DNA of 64,000 bases, taken from positions 18,457-82,456 of the IMG/VR virus record IMGVR_UViG_3300048918_000089; one strand, given 5' to 3'. Source of the stretch: a virus. Positions 16,864 to 60,238 of the stretch are shown piece by piece. The notes under the pieces are model-generated. The model saw nothing but the letters and a program-made list of their open reading frames with translations. It did not search any database and was not told where the DNA came from. Each line of letters opens with the position of its first letter. Positions within the stretch are counted from its first letter, which is position 1. The position numbers and the translations under genes were made by a program.

Positions 16864-18900
16864 ATGGCTATGAGAATCGCTATCGTTGATGTGCTGGGTC
16901 TGGCATATGATGGATATACCGTCGAGACTTTCGGACTAGGTGGGTCTGAGTCAGCGGTGACGTACATGGCAAAGGAGCTTGCTGCGTTGGGCCTTGATGT
17001 AACCGTATTCAATTCGTGCATCGACTCGCGGGCAAAGCCTGGGATCTACGACGGTGTTCAGTATCGTGACCTGACTGTTTTGGACAAAGCGGGAGATCAC
17101 CACTTTGACGTGATGATCGGCTCGCGTTCAGTGCAGCCGTTTCTGCCCAATCACCCGCGCTACTCCAAGATCAAGGCGAAGCACAAGATCCTCTGGCTCC
17201 ATGACACCTTCTGTGACGGCGACCAAATGGTCGAGGACTTGGTCCTACAGGGACACATCACCGAACTGTTCACCCTCTCTGATTGGCACACGTCATACAT
17301 CCTGAATTGTGACCACGGGAAGCGACGGAACTTCGAGGTGCTCAAGCGGAAGACGTTCCTGACGCGCAACGGAATACAGCGCCGCATTGAGGAAGTGGAC
17401 GTATCGGCCAAGGACCGCTATCGGTTCATCTACAATGCCTCAGCGACGAAGGGCATGGTTCCGTTGTTGGAGCAGATTTGGCCGCAGATCAAGACGCGCA
17501 TCCCTGCTGCGAAGCTCACTGTCATCGGAGGCTACTACCGATTCCGTGATGGGGCTGAGCCCGATGCGCAAGAAAATGTCGTAGCGAAATACGCCGCCGA
17601 TGAACGCCTGAAGGCACTTGACGTTGAGTTCACGGGCGTCATCCCACAGGGCGAGATTGCACGGCGCCTCGCAGGGGCATGGGCCACGATCTATCCCGCA
17701 GCATTCCCCGAGACGTTCGGCATCTCAACTCTGGAGTCGCTCGCGTACAACACCCCCGTCATTACGTCTCGCTTCGGCGCGCTTGAGGAGACGGCGATTG
17801 AGGAGGCATCGTACCTCATGGACTACGCAATCACACCCAACGTCCTCTTTCAGACGATCAATGAGGGCACGCAGGTTGCGCAGTTCGTGGACATGTTTGT
17901 CTCCGTCGTGATGAATCCCTATCTGCACCAGCAGAAGATTCAGGCATGCAATGCCGTGCGCCCCGTCGAAGGATGGGATACGGTCGCCCTGCAGTGGAAG
18001 CAACATCTGTTCAAGGTGTTCGGTGAGTTCCTTCCGGTAGACGAGTTCCGCCGTGTGCGCAAGATCAACAACGAAGTCCATCGGATCTTCAAGCGACGTT
18101 TCTCAAATCCCGAGGAGTGGACCCCGACGCCGCGTGCAAATGAGCAGGCGATTCACGTCGTCGTGCCATTCTACAATTCGCAGGAGTACATCGCGAAGTG
18201 CATTGAGTCCATCGCAACACAAGATTACCACAATTATAAGGTCACGCTGATTGATGATGCCTCAACCGATAATGGCTATTTGGTTGCACAGGCTGCGCTG
18301 AATCAGGTGCCCGAGAAGATTCGCAGGCGGTTTGGGCTCATTCGCAATCCTGTGAATGTGGGTGCGGTGAAGAACACCTTTGACATACTCAAGCGCATCC
18401 ATCTGAATGAACCAGGATCAACCATCGTCATGCTTCTCGACGGCGACGACTCGTTGGTTGCAGAGAACACAATCTTCCAATTCTACAATGACCTCTATCA
18501 GGGTCATGTTGATTTTGCATACGGATCCTGCTGGTCGATGGCAGACAACATCCCACTGATTGCACAGCCATATCCACAGCGGGTGCGTCTGGAGGGGACG
18601 TATCGACAGCACCTATTCGCGTGGAACATGCCGTACACTCATCTGCGCACATTCAGGTCGTATCTGATAAATCAGGTTTCAGAATCGCAGTGCAAGGATG
18701 AAGAGGGTAACTGGTATCGTGCAGGTGGTGATACCTCGATCTTCTATGCACTCATTGAAGGGGCAGACCCTAGAGGAGTCGTCGCAGTGTCCAAGATCGT
18801 CGTGAACTACAATGACCTCAACCCCCTGAATGACTACAAAGTCAACGGAGCAGAACAGACGCGCACAGCGCGGAAAGTTCTGGGACTAGATAAAGCATGA
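16864..18900 (+). CDS. bifunctional glycosyltransferase, GT-B (GT4-like) fused to GT-A (GT2-like)
   Basis: GLGGSESAV; EX7E motif FPETFGISTLESLAYNTPVI; VVVPFYNSQEYIAKCIESI...IDDASTD...LLDGDD. Confidence 0.88.
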   Translation: MAMRIAIVDVLGLAYDGYTVETFGLGGSESAVTYMAKELAALGLDVTVFNSCIDSRAKPGIYDGVQYRDLTVLDKAGDHHFDVMIGSRSVQPFLPNHPRYSKIKAKHKILWLHDTFCDGDQMVEDLVLQGHITELFTLSDWHTSYILNCDHGKRRNFEVLKRKTFLTRNGIQRRIEEVDVSAKDRYRFIYNASATKGMVPLLEQIWPQIKTRIPAAKLTVIGGYYRFRDGAEPDAQENVVAKYAADERLKALDVEFTGVIPQGEIARRLAGAWATIYPAAFPETFGISTLESLAYNTPVITSRFGALEETAIEEASYLMDYAITPNVLFQTINEGTQVAQFVDMFVSVVMNPYLHQQKIQACNAVRPVEGWDTVALQWKQHLFKVFGEFLPVDEFRRVRKINNEVHRIFKRRFSNPEEWTPTPRANEQAIHVVVPFYNSQEYIAKCIESIATQDYHNYKVTLIDDASTDNGYLVAQAALNQVPEKIRRRFGLIRNPVNVGAVKNTFDILKRIHLNEPGSTIVMLLDGDDSLVAENTIFQFYNDLYQGHVDFAYGSCWSMADNIPLIAQPYPQRVRLEGTYRQHLFAWNMPYTHLRTFRSYLINQVSESQCKDEEGNWYRAGGDTSIFYALIEGADPRGVVAVSKIVVNYNDLNPLNDYKVNGAEQTRTARKVLGLDKA

Positions 18901-47766: not shown

Positions 47767-48672
47767 TTAGTCGTTCGCGAGACCTGCGAAGTACGAAATG
47801 TCGTCTGCCTGCTCATCAGCACCCGATGACTTGGGCATTGAAGGAGCCGCAGTGCGACCTACTGATGGCGCTGGGGCAACTGCATCGTCAGCAATCTTCG
47901 CCGCCGCTTCAGCCGTCCGTGCACCTGCCGGTCCCTTGAGGACGAAGTCAAGCCGCTTCTTCAGATCCTCGTAGCTCTTGAAGTTCGACGGGGCCAAGAA
48001 CTCCTGGAGCGAATGTTCCTGCTTCCAGATTGCTTCGATAGCCTCATCCGTCTTGGCGATCGGGGTCGAGTTGTCAAACTTCGACTTGTCGTAGTTCCGA
48101 TAGCCTTCAACCTGCTGAATCAGGAGCTTGAAGTTCGCGCCCGTGTCGAAGTCGAACGGGTTGATCGGATCCTCACCCTCAAACTGAGGCTGCATGAGAT
48201 CCTTGATCTTGTCGAAAATCTTCTTGCCGAACTTGTACAAGAACACCTTCCCCTCGTTCGCAGGAACTGCGGGATCCTTGATAACGAGAATGTTGGCGAT
48301 GTACGTGAGCCGACGCTTCTGCTTGCGTGCGATATCCTTGTTGGATTCGATGCCAGAGTTCCAGAGTTCGGAATTGAGTTCCGAAACGGGGTCAGTCTGG
48401 CCTAGCGTCGTGAGAGAGTTTTCGATATACCACTTGCCAGTCGGGCCCTGGAAGCCGTGATTCCACGTGCGAACCCACGGAACATCTTCGCCTTGAACTG
48501 GGGGGAGAAAGCGGATGATCGCGGAACCGTTCTGCGCCTTGTCAACAGTCGGTGTCCAGAAACGATTGTCATCCTTGCGGTCGCCGCCAGTTGTCAGCTT
48601 TTCAACTTCCTTCATCAGGTTGTCGAAGTTGCCGCGGGCGGAACGCATTTCTGCGAGGGAACTGTAAGCCAT
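47767..48672 (-). CDS. gp32: single-stranded DNA-binding protein
   Basis: DNRFWTPTVDKAQNGSAIIRFLP, HGFQGPTGKWYIENSLTTLG..DPVSE, YKFGKKIFDKI, GANFKL, FKSYEDLKKRL; acidic C-terminus. Confidence 0.96.
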   Translation of the reverse strand: MAYSSLAEMRSARGNFDNLMKEVEKLTTGGDRKDDNRFWTPTVDKAQNGSAIIRFLPPVQGEDVPWVRTWNHGFQGPTGKWYIENSLTTLGQTDPVSELNSELWNSGIESNKDIARKQKRRLTYIANILVIKDPAVPANEGKVFLYKFGKKIFDKIKDLMQPQFEGEDPINPFDFDTGANFKLLIQQVEGYRNYDKSKFDNSTPIAKTDEAIEAIWKQEHSLQEFLAPSNFKSYEDLKKRLDFVLKGPAGARTAEAAAKIADDAVAPAPSVGRTAAPSMPKSSGADEQADDISYFAGLAND

Positions 48673-48729: not shown

Positions 48730-48915
48730 TTAGAGTTCCTCGTAATGAGGACCCTCGTAATCATCATTATCAACGTCGAAGAATAGGTAGTCCTTGTTCT
48801 CGGACAACTCATCCTCCAGCATCTTATTTATACTACCACGATGCTTAGACGCGCGGTCTTTTGTACCTTTGGAAGAATTGCGTAGCCGCGGTTCGTCCCG
48901 TCGAAACTTGCTCAT
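48730..48915 (-). CDS. small conserved hypothetical protein
   Basis: Basic N-terminus and acidic C-terminus; typical small gene upstream of gp32; contains a perfect TATAAATA. Confidence 0.6.
   Translation of the reverse strand: MSKFRRDEPRLRNSSKGTKDRASKHRGSINKMLEDELSENKDYLFFDVDNDDYEGPHYEEL
48825..48832 (-). promoter_or_regulatory. T4 late promoter TATAAATA upstream of gp32
   Basis: Exact gp55 consensus (plus strand tatttata). Confidence 0.65.
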
Positions 48916-49514
48916 AGTCCTAGTTGAGTTGTTGTGATGGTCAGAAAATGCTCCCTTGGCACTCTGACAAAAGGTGAATACTTCCTAACGAGAGAAATGA
49001 CCTCTTCAATCACAGGATCGGTCACTTCAGTTTTGTCGGTGAACTGAAACAGCTTGTTAAAGATCACCAACGTTTCTAGCGATACCTGTTTCGCCAGATA
49101 GCAATGGATCAGAGGTGGATGACTTTCATCCTCTCTGACCAATCTCCAGAAACACTCAGGTGCAATGAGTTTCGGATTCCCATACTCAGAGGAGAGAAGT
49201 TCCAACTCTTGCTTGTACCTATACGTGAGCGACTCGGTACGCTTCATCCATTCCTTGTAGACGGAATCAGCTTGACCCAGTTGATACATACCGCCATACC
49301 GATCACCCGCTGCAAAGTTCGCAGCGAGGAGTGACACGAATTGGGGCTTGGTGTACCGGCTTGCAACTTTCGCGAACGTGAATCGTTCCTTCTTCTGCAT
49401 GAAGGTGTATTCACTCGCGCGTACCGCACCCTTCGACTTCACAATATCGTACTTGGGCGACGTGAAGTGTAGGCGCATTGCGAGGTATATCTTGTACGCC
49501 TCAAATGGCTTCAT
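48912..49514 (-). CDS. gp59: helicase loader
   Basis: FEAYKIYLAMRLHFT..KYD...G...HPPLI..YL...VSLETLVI...KYSPFV. Confidence 0.9.
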   Translation of the reverse strand: MKPFEAYKIYLAMRLHFTSPKYDIVKSKGAVRASEYTFMQKKERFTFAKVASRYTKPQFVSLLAANFAAGDRYGGMYQLGQADSVYKEWMKRTESLTYRYKQELELLSSEYGNPKLIAPECFWRLVREDESHPPLIHCYLAKQVSLETLVIFNKLFQFTDKTEVTDPVIEEVISLVRKYSPFVRVPREHFLTITTTQLGL

Positions 49515-49813
49515 TCAAATTCAAGGGTCTCGGATGTGCGCTTGAGCAGGTGAAGATTCTCGGCCTCAACCCGAATCTTGTCCTTGAGCGCGGGCGTAAT
49601 CATGCCGGCGATTGTCGCGGGCTCAATGTCGCGTTCCTCGCAGAACTCCATGAGTGCTTCCATGCATCCGATCTTTCGGGTAATGGCCGTGCGCTCAATG
49701 TGCTGTGAGAACTCGATGGCACTGCGGAATTGCTTGGTGATCAAAAGCTCATCGGTAACATCTTCAGGCTGAAGATCGCCGAGTTGTTTGATCGGTGTTG
49801 CTAGGTGCATCAT
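49511..49813 (-). CDS. gp33: late transcription co-activator
   Basis: Likely start MMHLAT at 49813; FSQHIE...MEALMEFCEERDIEP...LKDKIRVEAENLHLLK. Confidence 0.85.
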   Translation of the reverse strand: MMHLATPIKQLGDLQPEDVTDELLITKQFRSAIEFSQHIERTAITRKIGCMEALMEFCEERDIEPATIAGMITPALKDKIRVEAENLHLLKRTSETLEFE

Positions 49814-50297
49814 GGTTGCTTCTCTGAGGGAAAGCGTAGAAAATATGCCGACCGATCTTTGCAACCCGAACCAACTCGACTTGCATCCAACGCGGCCAAA
49901 CGTCCACATTGTGAAAGTACACAGCCTTCTTGATGGGTGCCAGTCTCACCGAATCAATGAGCGCGGAGCGGGCGACGTCCTCTGCTTTCGCAAAGAGAAC
50001 AGGATCGCGCCGAATCCGATGCCCACATACCCATGAGAACTGGCACCCTTTCTTACCTCGCTGATACACGACACCGCAAATCGTTTTCGGAAAGTGTTTC
50101 GATTCCGTTCGATTCATGACGACTGTTGCAACTGCGAGTTTACCTGCAGCCGATTCCTCAGCCGCTTCAAAATACACCACTTCGGTCAAGCATGTCAATT
50201 CTCGTTGCGTAGCAGAATCAATCGGTGCAGCACCGCGGGGTAGTGCCAAAGACAGAACCAACATGCTTGAGGCGAACATCGACGTGAAGCCGATCAT
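49764..50297 (-). CDS. SleB/CwlJ-like (Hydrolase_2) cell wall hydrolase with an N-terminal hydrophobic segment
   Basis: CLTEVVYFEA..E...GKLAVATVVMNR....FPKTICGVVYQ....CQFSW...AVYFH...IGRHIFY. Confidence 0.9.
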   Translation of the reverse strand: MIGFTSMFASSMLVLSLALPRGAAPIDSATQRELTCLTEVVYFEAAEESAAGKLAVATVVMNRTESKHFPKTICGVVYQRGKKGCQFSWVCGHRIRRDPVLFAKAEDVARSALIDSVRLAPIKKAVYFHNVDVWPRWMQVELVRVAKIGRHIFYAFPQRSNHDAPSNTDQTTRRSSA

Positions 50298-50369: not shown

Positions 50370-51899
50370 TTAGATACCCGAGCAGTCCGTGTGACAGCGT
50401 GCATCCTCGCAGCAGAACTGTCCCTTCGGGCACTGGTCGTCCGAGACACACAGAGCAGGCGTAACGACGAGGGTATCGGTCTGGTCGATGTAGTGTTCAA
50501 CCGTAACCGTTGCCAACTCAGCCGACGTTTCTGTGAATACGCCAATTCGGAAGCGCCCAAGATATGGTGCGTTGTACGCATCCTTTCCCTGCACCCACAG
50601 CGTGTAGTAGCCTGTTGGGAGATCGGTGGGTGGGGCGATAGTGAGTTCAAGCCACGTGTCATGGGCATACGGCGTGATCCACTCCCATACCCGATTGAGC
50701 CGCTTCGGTGCAACGGCATCAGTCGTGTACACGTCACCGTAAGACCATGACACAATCGGCGCCTTCGGGGTGATACCGATTGTCACTGCGGCTCCCCGCT
50801 GAAGGGTCGCTAGTGTATCACCGATCGGCCGACCCCAGACGAGTCCGTCTGCGACAGGTGACGAGAGCAGAACATTGGGCGTTGTGCCGTAGATGGTTTC
50901 ATCACGGAACAGAAGATCAACATTACCCGACTGGATGACCAATTCCTGAATCTTGTCCGCAGTCAAGCTGGGGTTATCGGTGATGAACTGTGCGACAACG
51001 CCCGACGCGATTGCCGCCGCCGCCGATGTTCCTGCCGTTTCGATGAAGTTCTCTGTCGCCATATCAGCAACGGTCACACCCACGCCAGGCGCGGTGACGT
51101 CCACTTCAGGACCCCAGTTCGATGACTGTCCAGTGCTCCATGGGATGACACGATCAAACGCGTCCGAAGCGGCAACACCGAGCACCGAGTCAAGACCGAC
51201 TGGTGAGAGTGTGTCGGCACTGACGCCCGTGTTACCCGCTGCGGCAACGACAACAAGCCCTGCCGATTCCAACTCGGCAATCTTCGCGTCAAGAATGAGG
51301 CTCTTCGGGACAGTCCATGAGCAGTTGACGACCTTGACCCCAGGTGTCTTGGCATGATCGCCCAGAATTGCGTCAAGCGCCTCGAGGAGTACTGCAACCG
51401 AAATCGTTGTCCCCATTGGAATCTTGACGACTCGGATTGTTGCGGACGGCGCGACGCCGAGTCCCCAGCCACCGATCAGTGATGCCATCGCAGTGCCGTG
51501 ACCCGAGGGGTCAGTAATGTCAAGCGATGACGGGTACAGTGGGATGACCGTACCGCGCGCGAACTCGGGGTGCCCAACATCAACACCCGAGTCAACAAGA
51601 TAGACGGTCGAACCCTCGCCGTGATTCTTGGGCTTGTAGGTCTGCTTCAGTGGGAGCGACTCAGTGACGAGGCGCTGAAGGTGCCATGTCGAGACTTGCG
51701 GTGTGACCTCAAGCGTGACCTCTTCCTCAGCAAGCACGACGCCGGGAATCGCGAGAATGTCAGCCACTGGCTTGGTCGTCTCAAGCACCACAAACCGCGC
51801 GTTGCTCAGGGTCTGCTTGATTTTGCCAATCGCACGAAACGCCTTGGACAACTTCAGAATGTCCGCAGTCGGCGAGTAGAGAATATGGAACGTTGTCAT
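50370..51899 (-). CDS. S8 subtilisin-like serine protease with prodomain and Cys-rich C-terminal tail
   Basis: Start ATG 51899 (AGGA SD); catalytic residues YLVDSG, GHGTAMAS, AAAGN, AGTSAAA; ends ALCVSDDQCPKGQFCCEDARCHTDCSGI. Confidence 0.9.
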   Translation of the reverse strand: MTTFHILYSPTADILKLSKAFRAIGKIKQTLSNARFVVLETTKPVADILAIPGVVLAEEEVTLEVTPQVSTWHLQRLVTESLPLKQTYKPKNHGEGSTVYLVDSGVDVGHPEFARGTVIPLYPSSLDITDPSGHGTAMASLIGGWGLGVAPSATIRVVKIPMGTTISVAVLLEALDAILGDHAKTPGVKVVNCSWTVPKSLILDAKIAELESAGLVVVAAAGNTGVSADTLSPVGLDSVLGVAASDAFDRVIPWSTGQSSNWGPEVDVTAPGVGVTVADMATENFIETAGTSAAAAIASGVVAQFITDNPSLTADKIQELVIQSGNVDLLFRDETIYGTTPNVLLSSPVADGLVWGRPIGDTLATLQRGAAVTIGITPKAPIVSWSYGDVYTTDAVAPKRLNRVWEWITPYAHDTWLELTIAPPTDLPTGYYTLWVQGKDAYNAPYLGRFRIGVFTETSAELATVTVEHYIDQTDTLVVTPALCVSDDQCPKGQFCCEDARCHTDCSGI

Positions 51900-51925
51900 T
51901 GAGAGTCCTAAAAGGGGTTTGCTGA

Positions 51926-51933
51926 TATTTATG
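51926..51933 (-). promoter_or_regulatory. late promoter (CATAAATA) upstream of the subtilase
   Basis: Overlaps the TAA of the QueC-like gene. Confidence 0.6.
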
Positions 51934-52477
51934 CTAGATCGGGATCCGGAATCCCTACAACTTGTGTGCTCCATGCGCGCTCCCTACAGAAGAAGCAGGT
52001 CCCGCAGCGTCCCGGGGTCTTTGATCCACAAGATCGTGTCAGAGAGAGCAGGGGAAGGAGCCCCAGGCGCTGGTATTCCGCTATGATCGCGGCCTTGTCG
52101 AGGGTCATGAAGGGCCGAAAGTGTAGAGCGTTCGCGGGGTCGCCTCGCATCGGGACGAATCCCGCGTCCAAATCGACGGGCGGATTGAGCGTGCATCCCG
52201 TATAAACAACCCCATATGAAACGGATTGGACGAGTTCGACGGCGCGCCGAATCAGCATCGGCTGTGACTTGCCCCATGATCGAACGGTGAGCGTCGTCCC
52301 GAGAAGGGTGTTGATCGCATCGACAGTTACCTTCGCATGATGCGCGGTGTTTGCCCATGTGGAGATGACATGGACCTGAACGTCTGGGTTCTCTCGTGCA
52401 AGGAGATAGACCAAGAGCGTTGAGTCAGCCCCGCCCGACGTGAGGACGTGGACGGGAAGCTTGGGAATGACGATCAT
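51929..52477 (-). CDS. QueC-like PP-loop ATPase with a C-terminal Zn-binding motif
   Basis: LTSGGADSTLL PP-loop; RPF..LDKA.I; TRSC....GRCGTCFFCRER. Confidence 0.78.
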   Translation of the reverse strand: MIVIPKLPVHVLTSGGADSTLLVYLLARENPDVQVHVISTWANTAHHAKVTVDAINTLLGTTLTVRSWGKSQPMLIRRAVELVQSVSYGVVYTGCTLNPPVDLDAGFVPMRGDPANALHFRPFMTLDKAAIIAEYQRLGLLPLLSLTRSCGSKTPGRCGTCFFCRERAWSTQVVGIPDPDLA

Positions 52478-52494
52478 ACCGATATGTATATGGC

Positions 52495-52520
52495 AATACC
52501 CAGACCGAAGCCTGAGTATT
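52495..52520 (-). terminator. 11-bp hairpin with a cUUCGg tetraloop at the 3' end of the tmRNA coding piece
   Basis: Minus strand AATACTCAGGC-TTCG-GTCTGGGTATT. Confidence 0.65.
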
Positions 52521-52795
52521 GGAACTGTTTCTGTTGCTAGGCTTGTTCAAGCCCCGCCATGCTTACGCAGCGATGGCAAATGCAGAAGTGTCCATTGCAT
52601 TTAGATTTTCTGCTTTTACGGCAGTCAGCTACCGAATGGCGTCTTATTCTTTACTTTACACTCAGTCGAAACCGATCGCCCCCGAAGGTACTGTTTGCTT
52701 CGGTGTTTCTAGTGGAGGCGCGGGGAATTGAACCCCGGTCCTAAATGTGGTTCGGACAAGCATGACCATCATTTCCAACAACTACACGCAACCCT
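52521..52795 (-). ncRNA. ssrA: circularly permuted two-piece tmRNA: acceptor piece (~52795-52712), intervening segment, coding piece (52683-~52521)
   Basis: T-arm CGGGG-TTCAATT-CCCCG then CGCCTCC-A. Downstream 5' end GGGGGCG-ATCGGTTTCGAC pairs as an acceptor stem with G3-U70. Tag ORF 52598-52563 encodes AMDTSAFAIAA*. Outer ends are approximate. Confidence 0.9.
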
Positions 52796-52803
52796 GTCAG
52801 TTC

Positions 52804-52811
52804 TATTTATG
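52804..52811 (-). promoter_or_regulatory. late promoter (CATAAATA) upstream of tmRNA
   Basis: Overlaps the stop codon of 52807-53259. Confidence 0.6.
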
Positions 52812-53259
52812 ATCCCTCGTACTTCTTGCAACCGTGCACGCAGGGTGCATCGCCTACCCAGCACGTTCCAGTTGACCAATGCTTCCCCTTCGGATGACCA
52901 CATGTCTTGCACGGACCCTTCAGTTCGCCCCTGACGAGCATTTTGAGCAGGTCCTCGGTTAGCAACGACTCGGAATAACGAAGCACACGATCCGTTTCCG
53001 TCAGCGTTACTTCCTTCGCTTCGGCTCGGTCGTACATATCACCTTGGATAGAAACGACCCGCATGGTGACGTTCGTCACCTCGCTCTTCCAACGTCCTTC
53101 GGCCTCGTAAATCTTGAGCACCATGCCGACAGCAGTCTTAGATGCGCGACCGATTGCGTTCGCGTAGACGATGGTGTCACCTGGCTTGATAACGTTCCCC
53201 ATTCGATCAACGAATGAGTCAACCTCAGTGCGTGGATCCTTCGTGCCCTTGAGTGCCAT
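52807..53259 (-). CDS. hypothetical protein with an SH3/KOW-like barrel and a C-terminal Cys/His finger
   Basis: DRMGNVIKPGDTIVY; CKTCGH...HW...C...C..GC. Confidence 0.65.
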   Translation of the reverse strand: MALKGTKDPRTEVDSFVDRMGNVIKPGDTIVYANAIGRASKTAVGMVLKIYEAEGRWKSEVTNVTMRVVSIQGDMYDRAEAKEVTLTETDRVLRYSESLLTEDLLKMLVRGELKGPCKTCGHPKGKHWSTGTCWVGDAPCVHGCKKYEGS

Positions 53260-53615
53260 TATGAGCCCAGCTTCTGTAGGGCGGCGATCCGCGACTGGAT
53301 CTCCTTTGCGACTGCCGCTTCTGCTTCAACCCGCGTCGGGAAGACAGGTGTCAGCGACCTACTGAAACTGCGGATCCGGGGCTGAATGGCTTTGGTATGA
53401 TCGAACGTATGACCGACTTTTGACCAATCAACCTCCCAGACCAAATCCCCGAAGCCCATGGCAAGCATGATCTTCTCGGCCACTTTCTCATCAAGGGAGA
53501 TTGACACACCGCCGACTTCAAGGGCGTAGGTCACGCCACTCTCGTACTGCTCGGACCAACGGTGTGCAACGAACTCCACATTCGGTAGAGGCCGTTTCTC
53601 GTCACGCATTCCCAT
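53259..53615 (-). CDS. hypothetical protein
   Basis: 118-aa ORF with SD (AGGAGA), coupled to the downstream gene. Confidence 0.6.
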   Translation of the reverse strand: MGMRDEKRPLPNVEFVAHRWSEQYESGVTYALEVGGVSISLDEKVAEKIMLAMGFGDLVWEVDWSKVGHTFDHTKAIQPRIRSFSRSLTPVFPTRVEAEAAVAKEIQSRIAALQKLGS

Positions 53616-53630
53616 TCACGTCTCCTGTCT

Positions 53631-53912
53631 TTAGTTGGCTGAATCCCACGCGGCTTCTGCTGCTCGCATCGCTGTCCTACACACGTCGCAAATGTCGTAC
53701 CCACGAACGTTTTGCGTAGGTGCATCACCCTTGCAAAGAGAACTGATCCCGAAGTAGTCGCAGTGGATTTTCGGATACAGACGATTGATCGCCTCAATCC
53801 ATTCCGCGCGAGTTGCCGTGATTCGTCCGATGCGCAGCGTGTCCCCTGCTACTGTGTACTTCCAGTCGCCCCGATCTAGCGGAACGAGCGGGAGTGTGTT
53901 GTTTGTTGTCAT
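53631..53912 (-). CDS. hypothetical protein with a Cys finger (possibly leaderless)
   Basis: ATG at 53912; HCDYF...LCKG...ICDVC. Confidence 0.6.
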   Translation of the reverse strand: MTTNNTLPLVPLDRGDWKYTVAGDTLRIGRITATRAEWIEAINRLYPKIHCDYFGISSLCKGDAPTQNVRGYDICDVCRTAMRAAEAAWDSAN

Positions 53913-57931: not shown

Positions 57932-58240
57932 TCAGCCCTCACTCGCCTTTCTACGTCTGGATCGAACTTTTCGGCGTGGAGTGCTGTCGTGTTCTGCCAC
58001 ACCCTGTGTGCCCTCCGGAGCCGCGCTGTCCACGTCTGCGACACTCGGGGCTGCGTTTTCACAGAGGAAGTTCCCATAGAGTTCCCTCGCTTCATCAAAG
58101 TTGGCGAGGTTCAGAACATGCGCACATTCCTCGCAATAGTGCTTCCGTGTGGACTTGTTGAACCACGTTGCATCCGGTGCTCGGCACGCTGTCCGATTGC
58201 AGAGACCGTGCAGTGTTCCGATTTCAGGCTGCGGCGTCAT
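57932..58240 (-). CDS. small Cys-rich putative Zn-binding protein
   Basis: GLCNRTACRAPDATWFNKSTRKHYCEECA; likely ATG at 58240. Confidence 0.6.
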   Translation of the reverse strand: MTPQPEIGTLHGLCNRTACRAPDATWFNKSTRKHYCEECAHVLNLANFDEARELYGNFLCENAAPSVADVDSAAPEGTQGVAEHDSTPRRKVRSRRRKASEG

Positions 58241-58894
58241 AGTGCTCCTCGAAGAAGTCACGGGCTTTCAGTAGTCCTTTCACCCATGGGTTACGCTTCT
58301 CAATGAAAATCTGCGGCGCTTCGTTCTCAACGGTGATGATGACGACTGACCGATTGATCGGCTGACCTGTCAACTCCTCCCACATGATTGCGTACGCCGC
58401 GCATTGCATGAAGTAATTCTCAATCCATTCGGGCTTCTTGATGGAGTTCGAGGTCTTGAAGTCAATGATGGACAGCACTCCGTCGAACTCCGCCACGCAA
58501 TCGACGCGCCCCGCAAGTCGCAGGTAATGTGAATAGAGACCTGCTTCCTGCATCCTGATGTTGTTGATCCTTGATAGGATCGGCACCATTTGCTTGAACA
58601 TGATGTTGTCAAGCAACGACGACCTCGGGATGCGAACCAACTCGTTGTTCAGATGCATTTCGATCATCGAATGGACCTTCGTGCCGCGCACTGCCGCCTG
58701 TCGTCCGATCTTCAGTGCTTCGTCATACCCCACTCGCTCGCGCCACTGGTCGAGCCCAGCCTTGGACTGATATCCGAGCACCGTTGTGACTGACGGATAC
58801 TTGCGCCCGTCGGGGGTCTTGTAGAAACGAACACCAGACGCTTGCGTCTCCGCTTCGATCTGGGCAATTTCAGGCGGCGGGATGTGAATGAACA
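58224..58894 (-). CDS. PD-(D/E)XK exonuclease (lambda-exonuclease/Cas4-like family)
   Basis: RFYKTPDG..YPSVTTVL, RGTKVH, AGRVDCVAEFDG.LSIIDFKTS, YFMQCAAYA; likely GTG start at 58894. Confidence 0.88.
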
Positions 58895-59347
58895 CTAGTG
58901 GGTCTGCTCGCCATTGATGACACAATCCATGCAATCGCATGTCCGCCAACCTTCGGGGAGATAGCAGTTCTCTGGCGCATTCGCGAACATCGGAGCAATG
59001 TCATCGTCAGTGAAGCCCGCGAGACCGCAACCAACGCGCGTCACGATGAAGGACAGTTCGGGATGATTCTTGGCGAACACCAATAGTTCATCGACGTACA
59101 CCTTAACGTCACCCTTTGCCAATTGCACACCTGGCGTAGAGACGGTTGGGAGCGCATAGCTTCGACCATAGAGACCGACACCGCGACCGAACACAGCACC
59201 ATACTGCTCGCGCGCAACTCGCGCAGCGCCCGCACCATGAATGCCTAGCTCGTTAGAGCCGAATACGAAGATCGTATTCGGCTCTTGCATCTGAAGTTCG
59301 ACGCGACGAATGTCGGTTTTGATTTCTTTGATGCCGTATTGGATCAT
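58895..59347 (-). CDS. macro-domain-like (Appr-1-p processing-like) protein
   Basis: IFVFGSNELGIHGAGAARVA...SYALPT...FIVTRVGCGLAGF...IAPMF. Confidence 0.7.
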   Translation of the reverse strand: MIQYGIKEIKTDIRRVELQMQEPNTIFVFGSNELGIHGAGAARVAREQYGAVFGRGVGLYGRSYALPTVSTPGVQLAKGDVKVYVDELLVFAKNHPELSFIVTRVGCGLAGFTDDDIAPMFANAPENCYLPEGWRTCDCMDCVINGEQTH

Positions 59348-59710: not shown

Positions 59711-60238
59711 CTAACGGTTTCTACAGTTGTCTCCGTGCCACCTTACAAATGTGCAGTGAGCCATTTCTTTCTGGCAGTATTGACAGACCACAAGAGGCTT
59801 CCTTTTTGACTGTAAGCGAATCTTCTCCCTGACAGATTCTGGGTGTGGATCACGAACTCTAACCTTAGCCGCCTCGCTCATTTTCTGCTTTGATTCAGCA
59901 GTGCGGCGCTGGCCTGTATTACCTCGAATCATCTTCTCCCTAATCTCAGGACGTTTCATAGGATGAAGATCACCCGACGCCCAACCTACTGGACTGTTGT
60001 TGAAGTTCATACACCCCTCGGTTCCGATATTCTCAGAGAGATGTTGCCGCTCCAATTCCATTAGGTCTTCTGTTGATTCGGCAAATTCCAGAATCTCTCT
60101 GGTGAGTTGACTCTTGTCCTTCATTGCACGAATCCATTTTCCAGATCCTAGATAACCGTCAGCTATATTGACCGTCGAGTGACGACCAATGTAGAAACGA
60201 CCTGATGGGCTAGAAGTTCGGTAGATGAAATGGTGCAT
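59711..60238 (-). mobile_element. free-standing GIY-YIG (Seg-like) homing endonuclease with NUMOD3-like repeats
   Basis: HFIYRT.SPSGRFYIGRHST....DGYLGSG; EILEF; E.REKM/ESKQKMSEA/ESVREKI repeats; lower GC (about 43% in sampled lines). Confidence 0.85.

Follow-up and report, generated by a model that had tools for sequence, protein, structure and literature searches.

The minus-strand segment 52494-52814 of a 64,000-nucleotide (nt) stretch of viral DNA (IMG/VR virus record IMGVR_UViG_3300048918_000089, positions 18,457 to 82,456; the whole stretch is referred to here as the window) raises the question of whether it encodes an intact, circularly permuted two-piece transfer-messenger RNA (tmRNA) and, if so, where the gene came from, when it is expressed and whether its product tags proteins. 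An initial annotation had proposed such a gene behind a late promoter. The evidence described below supports the identification of 52494-52814 as a phage-encoded, circularly permuted two-piece tmRNA, and the window gene is probably an intact tmRNA gene (ssrA) that occupies a conserved locus in a clade of T4-like phages, with late expression and protein tagging as its proposed properties.

ARAGORN, run over the whole window, called a single gene, a permuted tmRNA (tmRNA*) on the minus strand at 52472-52802. Rfam covariance models run at curated thresholds reported exactly two matches. RF04321 (tmRNA_permuted) aligned over the full model (positions 1-213) to 52563-52770 with 106.9 bits against a gathering score of 47 (E 7.5e-20), and RF01850 (beta_tmRNA) matched 52494-52814 with 89.6 bits against a gathering score of 84. 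The score of 106.9 bits lies within the span of the other phage copies scored (84.5-136 bits), while the beta label given by the second model is weak. Detection at this level, together with the set of elements found, is far above chance expectation for a permuted tmRNA. The initial annotation, which had suggested both kinds of search as checks, was thus right about the nature of the gene and wrong in asserting that standard scans would miss or mis-call it, since ARAGORN and Rfam both detect it. It had also treated the phage location as new, and two-piece phage tmRNAs have already been published for this phage group (PMC9004378).

The permuted order of the gene is confirmed by its layout, in which the T-arm and acceptor 3' strand (52737-52713) are followed by a 29-nt spacer and then by the 5' strand from 52683. 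The acceptor stem, the G3-U70 pair, the T-arm, the spacer, helix P2, the resume context, the tag and the UUCG hairpin all lie where the initial annotation had placed them (Table 1). The alanine identity pair G3-U70 corresponds to G52681-U52716 and falls inside the 7-base-pair (bp) acceptor stem. A GGUUUCGAC D-loop analogue is present in place of the D-arm and anticodon arm, the analogue of the window tmRNA being AUCGGUUUCGAC, within 52665..52683. Helix P2 comprises 15 modelled pairs in the Rfam alignment, of which two are non-standard and both of these fall inside one 4-bp segment; a C-G pair (52665/52741) lengthens P2a to eight continuous pairs. G1 and G2 of the mature 5' end are also part of the 3' arm of a hairpin in the spacer. 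The acceptor and T stems covary among phage relatives while G3-U70 is invariant, and several P2a pairs are altered on both strands between the window and the relative L186. An unconstrained co-fold of the two pieces forms the 7-bp acceptor stem, including the G-U pair, as well as the T-arm. ACCA is absent from 30 of the 99 viral and 71 of the 78 bacterial beta-type copies, so the lack of an encoded CCA in the window gene is unremarkable.

ARAGORN places the start of the tag 15 nt earlier than the initial annotation had done, in frame, at 52613, which gives AENLNAMDTSAFAIAA. This longer tag is disfavoured by the Rfam alignment and by the UAAAU context conserved in the relatives L186, L188 and L194, and on these grounds the tag AMDTSAFAIAA* following UAAAU-GCA is upheld. 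Among the tags of the window subclade, the resume codon (GCA, GAC or GGN) and the N-terminal residues vary and the C-terminal ALAA or AIAA is kept. A kept ALAA or AIAA with a drifting remainder is what translation of the tag and its recognition by a ClpX-type protease would be expected to produce.

The window belongs to an 83,943-base IMG/VR virus record that is about 46% complete, and searches of sequencing runs listed no RNA run and found DNA holding the window sequence solely in root metagenomes. The carrier is a T4-type phage by its gp32, gp59, gp33, tail sheath, baseplate and fibre genes. Its gp32 is ~52% identical to gp32 of cyanomyophages, Pelagibacter phage HTVC008M and Methylophilales phage Melnitz. 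In Melnitz the gene order is PD-(D/E)XK nuclease, two small genes, tmRNA, gp33, gp59, thyX and gp32, and the minus strand of the window has the same order with the addition of PP-loop (QueC-like), S8 subtilase and endolysin-like genes between the tmRNA and gp33. Conservation of the locus was surveyed directly in 80 IMG/VR contigs whose gp32 is 59-82% identical to that of the window. A permuted tmRNA lies upstream of gp32 on the same strand in 30 of the 80, and among those with at least 6 kb of upstream sequence it is found in 18 of 23, at 1.5-4.5 kb from gp32 (3.8 kb in the window). A run of tmRNA, PP-loop gene and subtilase is common to L186, L241, L017/L020/L035, L061/L076/L082 and many of L298-L328 (the module phages below), and in L045 only the PP-loop gene was seen after the tmRNA. 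Pseudomonas phage pf16, a T4-like phage with a soil bacterium as host, has no tmRNA. No tRNA genes were found in the window contig. SmpB was likewise not found in five tmRNA-bearing relatives, which include the complete Melnitz genome and records that are 99% and 92% complete. Together with its absence from the 84-kb window contig, this supports the statement of the initial annotation that the RNA would need SmpB from the host; such dependence is supported as the rule for these phage tmRNAs and is presumed for all known phage tmRNAs. The possibility that the sequence is a phage attachment (attP) or integration site was rejected, as the gene is complete rather than a 3' fragment, the phage is T4-like and no integrase was present among the genes scanned.

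A T4 late promoter is a bare TATAAATA at -10 that is read by gp55, gp33 and the gp45 clamp (Geiduschek and Kassavetis 2010, cited in PMC9004378). The putative late promoter of the window tmRNA is CATAAATA, which overlaps the TAA stop codon (52807-52809) of an upstream 150-amino-acid open reading frame (ORF). ATAAATA occurs 12 times in the window versus 1.4 expected, a count that no shuffle out of 100 reached. Eleven of these occurrences are on the minus strand and seven precede virion genes, the genes so preceded including those for the tail sheath, two fibre proteins, fibre assembly, the baseplate wedge and the tube cap. Over the whole contig, 11 of 15 occurrences of NATAAATA are intergenic or at gene edges, though ~96% of the contig is coding. 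Among non-redundant tmRNA copies, NATAAATA is found upstream of 25 of the 88 viral copies and none of the 99 bacterial ones (0/28 alpha, 0/71 beta). The motif stands 25-70 nt ahead of the GGAC junction, and the copies that have it are 14 of the 23 syntenic viral ones, 11 of the 65 remaining viral ones and that of Melnitz. L186 and L188 have a perfect TATAAATA with no obvious -35 element. The presence of the motif before many phage copies and no sampled bacterial copy argues for late over early expression, and from these counts and positions we infer that a late promoter may drive the window tmRNA. Neither a sigma-70-like promoter nor a terminator was found in 51800-53700, so transcripts begun upstream are likely to enter the tmRNA and continue into the PP-loop gene, which is probably co-transcribed with the tmRNA.

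We infer the following course for the expression, processing, charging and tagging activity of the RNA. The late-transcription machinery, for which the phage encodes a gp33-type coactivator, would start the transcript a few bases past CATAAATA, and in the absence of a terminator the transcript would extend past the tmRNA and cover the PP-loop and subtilase genes. Host RNase P would cleave 5' of G52683, host 3'-processing enzymes would trim the acceptor piece to A52713 and the host CCA-adding enzyme would add CCA. T4 tRNAs without an encoded CCA are matured likewise, by 3' trimming and CCA addition by the host. The 29-nt spacer would be discarded and the two pieces would be held together by the 7-bp acceptor stem and helix P2. 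Host alanyl-tRNA synthetase could then charge the RNA by way of G3-U70, and host SmpB and EF-Tu would bring it to ribosomes halted on mRNA that is broken or has no stop codon. Translation would resume at GCA (52598) and add (A)AMDTSAFAIAA, whose AIAA end would mark the product for ClpXP-type proteolysis by the host while the ribosome is recycled. The likely benefit to the phage would be that ribosomes are kept free at the peak of translation demand, when host ssrA is no longer transcribed.

Several searches and a phylogenetic analysis bear on the origin of the gene. Comparison of the window tmRNA with INPHARED phages by blastn gave no match. A strict permuted-tmRNA pattern matched 99 IMG/VR contigs, none of them close to the window, and a pattern tuned to the window T-arm and acceptor had one match, in an unrelated metagenome contig. 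A scan of bacterial contigs yielded 80 copies, mostly from Rhodocyclaceae, that are ~60-65% identical to the window, and blastn identities between the window and the sampled copies, viral and bacterial alike, are all about 60-67%. With RF01850, bacterial beta tmRNAs score 269.7 and 323 bits and other viral copies 96-145, compared with 89.6 for the window. The best clan label flips within the window subclade, with L186 and L188 labelled alpha at ~58 bits and L045, L241 and L017 labelled beta at 93-100 bits, and all five score 111-120 bits on the generic permuted model.

A careful maximum-likelihood tree was based on 65 cores, each running from the P2 arm as far as the tag stop and lacking the spacer (~195 columns). 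Melnitz, ten viral rows with long branches and subsets drawn at random from each group were omitted from it. A quick 183-row tree and its approximately unbiased (AU) test values were set aside because every constrained search beat the tree. In the 65-core tree, alpha bacteria were split from all other copies (100/100) and the window, on a branch of 0.54, was joined to the module phages and an odd Herbaspirillum copy with support of 82/81, outside a Rhodocyclaceae-type clade that had support of 100/100. The AU test did not reject a grouping of the window with the module phages (delta lnL 1.1, p 0.31) and disfavoured one with the Rhodocyclaceae-type clade (delta lnL 30.7, p 0.066); nor did it reject a grouping with the alpha copies (p 0.33), a comparison affected by long branches. 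Tree and synteny together make inheritance within the phage group, rather than recent capture from a host, the best reading, though the RNA alone cannot prove it.

The Rhodocyclaceae-type beta two-piece tmRNAs form one clade (100/100) inside a phage-dominated polytomy, in a tree that is unrooted and poorly resolved and has no cyanobacterial references. That the tmRNAs of the gp33-gp59-gp32 locus constitute a vertical phage lineage of their own, with late promoters and with tags (resume codons for Ala, Asp or Gly) that serve phage purposes, and that the Rhodocyclaceae-type beta form is a branch of the same radiation, is an unlikely proposition. If it were true, the bacterial two-piece form would have been exchanged with, or even derived from, phages.

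Some copies found in these searches are unusual in their placement or form. The Herbaspirillum copy, from Herbaspirillum sp. CF444 (L138:3305-3634, NZ_AKJW01000033.1), is a permuted tmRNA that scores 114.8 bits with RF04321 and has the ARAGORN tag ANQPQYIAYGT. It groups with the module-phage tmRNAs and not with bacterial beta, it adjoins LysR, alpha/beta-hydrolase and YceI genes, and it could represent a second ssrA, derived from a phage or carried on an island. The strict beta-like permuted pattern also matches Cupriavidus-labelled contigs (L106, L134, L137 and L173) and contigs labelled as Pseudobdellovibrionaceae, Gemmatimonadota, Fimbriimonadaceae and Hydrogenedentota (L114, L125, L146, L160 and L167). 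Such matches outside the classical two-piece lineages may be extra copies borne on mobile elements or further permuted lineages. The module-clade tmRNA at L316:4203-4372 matches only positions 1-172 of the 213-position permuted model, and its tag region is very divergent or lost.

The reading of the window gene as an intact, late-expressed tmRNA has to contend with a number of observations. Only ~3 bp of the second stem of PK1 were found by eye. The tmRNA fold is not recovered when the precursor is folded to minimum energy (z -1.1), the co-fold favours pairing of the 5' arm of the acceptor piece with the tag region, and unconstrained folds lack P2. The window RNA is on a long branch (0.44-0.54) with no close relative, its best identity in the two trees being 63-66%, to L188. 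SmpB (PF01668) was not matched in the 84-kb contig, but the contig is only ~46% complete. The promoter motif is CATAAATA rather than TATAAATA and is 62 nt from the GGAC junction, versus 32-45 nt in most relatives; with the shorter spacing, transcription would begin close to the first base of the acceptor piece, and the spacing in the window predicts a leader of ~27 nt. In Melnitz (L181:4150-4235, MZ577097.1) and L189:7043-7100, a consensus sigma-70 promoter (TTGACA-N17-TATAAA/T) overlaps TATAAATA, and the late-type motif may act as a -10 box in some phages. Buchholz et al. 2022 proposed an early promoter for the Melnitz tmRNA (PMC9004378), an assignment that could equally be a late or dual promoter. 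A less likely reading is that the tmRNA is real and has no dedicated late promoter, its transcription being by read-through, early or constitutive and CATAAATA being incidental or minor. The imperfect and displaced motif, its coincidence with a sigma-70 promoter in the two phages just named and the early assignment for Melnitz all favour this alternative, as do the overlap of the motif with the stop codon of the upstream ORF and the lack of a terminator between that ORF and the tmRNA. Against it are the lack of any sigma-70-like promoter in 51800-53700, the excess of the motif in the window (12 found versus 1.4 expected), the presence of C/G/A-ATAAATA variants before tail sheath, fibre, baseplate-wedge and tube-cap genes, and the perfect TATAAATA that stands without an obvious -35 in L186 and L188. 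The putative late promoter of the initial annotation has held up in the enrichment of its motif and the location of that motif before structural genes and many phage tmRNAs, and less well in its 7/8 match and in a position ~20-30 nt further upstream than in relatives.

Other alternatives concern the source or the activity of the RNA. Recent capture of a Rhodocyclaceae- or Burkholderiales-type ssrA from a betaproteobacterial host, which would make the gene a moron, could account for beta_tmRNA being the best Rfam clan match and for a tag end, FAIAA, shared with ANDEQFAIAA of Azonexus-type bacteria; the source is a root metagenome, and Burkholderiales are common in root habitats. Such capture is nevertheless very unlikely given a beta score of 89.6 bits versus 270-323 for real beta tmRNAs, an identity of only ~60-65% to every sampled bacterial copy, the flipping of alpha and beta labels within one phage subclade, a locus conserved with Melnitz and dozens of phage contigs, and an AU test that disfavours a Rhodocyclaceae sister (delta lnL 30.7, p 0.066). 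There is a slim chance that the RNA instead serves mainly as a decoy, titrating SmpB or blocking trans-translation in the host, with no tagging of proteins. Without a phage smpB the RNA must compete for that of the host, the N-terminus of the tag is atypical in having no ANDE start, resume codons vary in the subclade, and the tRNA-like-domain-only molecule of mycobacteriophage DS6A has been proposed as a decoy (cited in PMC4131195). The window RNA, however, retains a full mRNA-like domain with its UAAAU resume context, open frame and stop codon, and throughout the subclade the tag holds on to its C-terminal ALAA or AIAA as its other residues change. Decay to a relic without function is highly improbable. 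The long terminal branch, the displaced and imperfect promoter motif, the missing CCA and the weak second PK1 stem would fit decay, but all identity elements and helices are preserved, the Rfam alignment containing no more than two non-standard pairs, the tag has an uninterrupted frame and a proper stop, CCA is commonly missing in functional lineages, and the score of 107 bits is within the range of other phage copies (84.5-136). Pairing of the acceptor-piece 5' arm (52741-52770) with 52572-52604 on the minus strand, in four collinear helices of 23 bp that would mask the resume codon, was considered as a feature in its own right and was rejected (z -2.0, 12 of 300 shuffles, not conserved in L186, L188 or L241).

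An intact ssrA gene inherited within a group of T4-like phages, which remains the preferred reading, has a clear precedent. Buchholz et al. 2022 described a two-piece ssrA in the cultured phage Melnitz (PMC9004378), and the same study counted 53 two-piece forms among 133 distinct phage tmRNAs, with 50 of the 53 coming from marine or aquatic phages. Of the 47 Melnitz-like contigs in that study, 17 had a permuted tmRNA. Earlier catalogues of phage tmRNAs held one-piece forms only (PMC4131195). The window tmRNA is accordingly a divergent further example of a published type and not a new type. Melnitz and the window phage, T4-like members of one broad clade (gp32 ~52% identical), have in common a two-piece tmRNA, the arrangement PD-(D/E)XK nuclease, tmRNA, gp33-gp59 and gp32, the lack of a phage smpB and a late-type motif upstream (TATAAATA in Melnitz). 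They differ in that the Melnitz tmRNA has an alpha-type score (106.7 bits) and a glutamine riboswitch at its 3' end, which the window does not have, whereas the window has PP-loop, subtilase and endolysin-like genes between the tmRNA and gp33. In addition, the Melnitz motif overlaps a consensus sigma-70 promoter and the window motif does not, and Melnitz comes from seawater while the window comes from a plant-root metagenome.

The nearest relatives found are the uncultured IMG/VR phages L186, L188, L241, L045 and L298-L328, which have the order tmRNA, PP-loop, subtilase upstream of gp33. Like the window, the module phages have a late-type motif upstream, several have an incomplete or absent CCA, and their scores on the generic permuted model are ~110-120 bits. 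Identity of the RNAs to that of the window is only 63-67%, the resume codon is GAC or GGN with tags such as DNNYMSFATSYALAA or GTYNAPLALAA in place of GCA and AMDTSAFAIAA, and TATAAATA is 18-30 nt closer to the gene. With the betaproteobacterial lineage (Sharkady and Williams 2004; RF01850) the window shares the permuted order, the helix plan, two 3' hairpins that replace PK2-PK4 and the tag end FAIAA, as in Azonexus-type bacteria. Its RF01850 score is barely over the threshold, however, the window does not conserve the sigma-70 promoter that forms part of the Rfam model, and the tree does not put the window in the bacterial clade. The permuted two-piece principle is also shared with Caulobacter and other Alphaproteobacteria (Keiler, Shapiro and Williams 2000; RF01849), though the alpha copies form a separate clade (100/100) and Rfam does not score the window as alpha. 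In the Caulobacter type, tRNA-processing enzymes cut one precursor into acceptor and coding pieces that are held together by base pairing, and the Caulobacter/alphaproteobacterial form is the only two-piece tmRNA with experimentally shown function (cited in PMC9004378 and PMC11915505). The tmRNAs of mycobacteriophages of the Bxz1 group and of Bacillus phage G resemble that of the window in being phage-borne ssrA without a phage smpB, and differ in being one-piece and unpermuted and in belonging to unrelated phages and hosts (PMC4131195).

The window adds a divergent plant-root example to a class known almost wholly from marine and aquatic phages. The surveys extend slightly past the literature in showing that the tmRNA slot is fixed upstream of gp33-gp59-gp32 in a large share of the phage group, and that many phage copies, but none of the bacterial copies sampled, have a T4-late-type motif ahead of them. 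The alpha and beta labels of Rfam are unreliable for these phage RNAs, which calls for caution in inferring host transitions from them. The accepted role of tmRNA is unchanged by the finding.

Table 1. Positions of the tmRNA elements and neighbouring genes in the window.
Feature	Position	Strand	Remarks
T4-late-type motif CATAAATA (putative promoter)	52811-52804	minus	7/8 to TATAAATA; overlaps upstream ORF stop
5' arm of acceptor piece, P2 5' strands	52741..52770	minus	Rfam RF04321 alignment and direct pairing check
P2 pairing	GAUGG 52770-52766 with CCAUU 52639-52635	minus	
P2a	ACATTTA 52748-52742 with TGAGTGT 52664-52658	minus	7 pairs, 2 of them G-U
T-arm CGGGG / UUCAAUU / CCCCG	52737-52721	minus	Rfam alignment; also in unconstrained folds
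Acceptor-stem 3' strand CGCCUCC	52720-52714	minus	
Discriminator A	52713	minus	next bases CUA, hence CCA not encoded
Intervening spacer, 29 nt	52712-52684	minus	no ORF; proposed to be removed on maturation
Spacer hairpin	CCGAAG 52703-52698 / CUUCGG 52687-52682	minus	seen in minimum-energy precursor fold
Coding-piece mature 5' end, acceptor 5' strand GGGGGCG	52683-52677	minus	pairs 7/7 with CGCCUCC
ATCGGTTTCGAC	52676-52665	minus	just after GGGGGCG
PK1 first stem, hairpin CGGU-AGCUGACU-GCCG	52634-52619	minus	Rfam alignment; 4 pairs, all standard
Resume context UAAAU, then tag frame GCA...UAA	52563..52603 (frame 52598-52563)	minus	encodes AMDTSAFAIAA*
3' structured region of coding piece	52494..52555	minus	small hairpin near 52550-52530 and terminal hairpin
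Terminal 12-bp hairpin, UUCG loop	52521-52494	minus	no T-run terminator after
PP-loop (SGGxDS) QueC-like gene	51929..52477	minus	starts 17 nt after tmRNA
S8 subtilase gene	50370..51899	minus	own CATAAATA upstream at 51926-51933; paired with PP-loop gene
gp33-like late-transcription coactivator	49511-49909	minus	phrog_254; ~3 kb downstream of tmRNA
gp59	48912-49514		conserved locus downstream of tmRNA
gp32	47767-48672		conserved locus downstream of tmRNA
PD-(D/E)XK nuclease	58224-58949		conserved locus neighbour

The PP-loop and S8 subtilase genes form a tight two-gene pair in uncultured T4-like phages (50370-52477 in the window; L298-L332 and L020). When loci were collected with a subtilase probe, independently of the tmRNA, the PP-loop gene was directly upstream in all 33 loci having upstream sequence and a tmRNA stood ahead of the pair in 22 of 28. 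For the six pair loci without a tmRNA, its absence was confirmed by Rfam in four representatives. Obligatory coupling of the tmRNA to the pair was rejected, since the pair occurs without a tmRNA in L301, L307, L319 and L329, and most tmRNA-bearing relatives lack the pair. The tmRNA is a frequent, non-obligatory resident of the locus that is not functionally tied to the PP-loop/subtilase pair. A protein-probe search of viral contigs returned no relatives of the PP-loop protein; tblastn on loci obtained by other routes did recover them. The PP-loop protein itself is 182 amino acids long, with SGGxDS at the N-terminus and a QueC match confined to its C-terminal part. Beyond the PD-(D/E)XK nuclease gene, at a distance of two small ORFs, is a homing-endonuclease-like ORF on the minus strand (59711-60238; phrog_314, E 2e-25).

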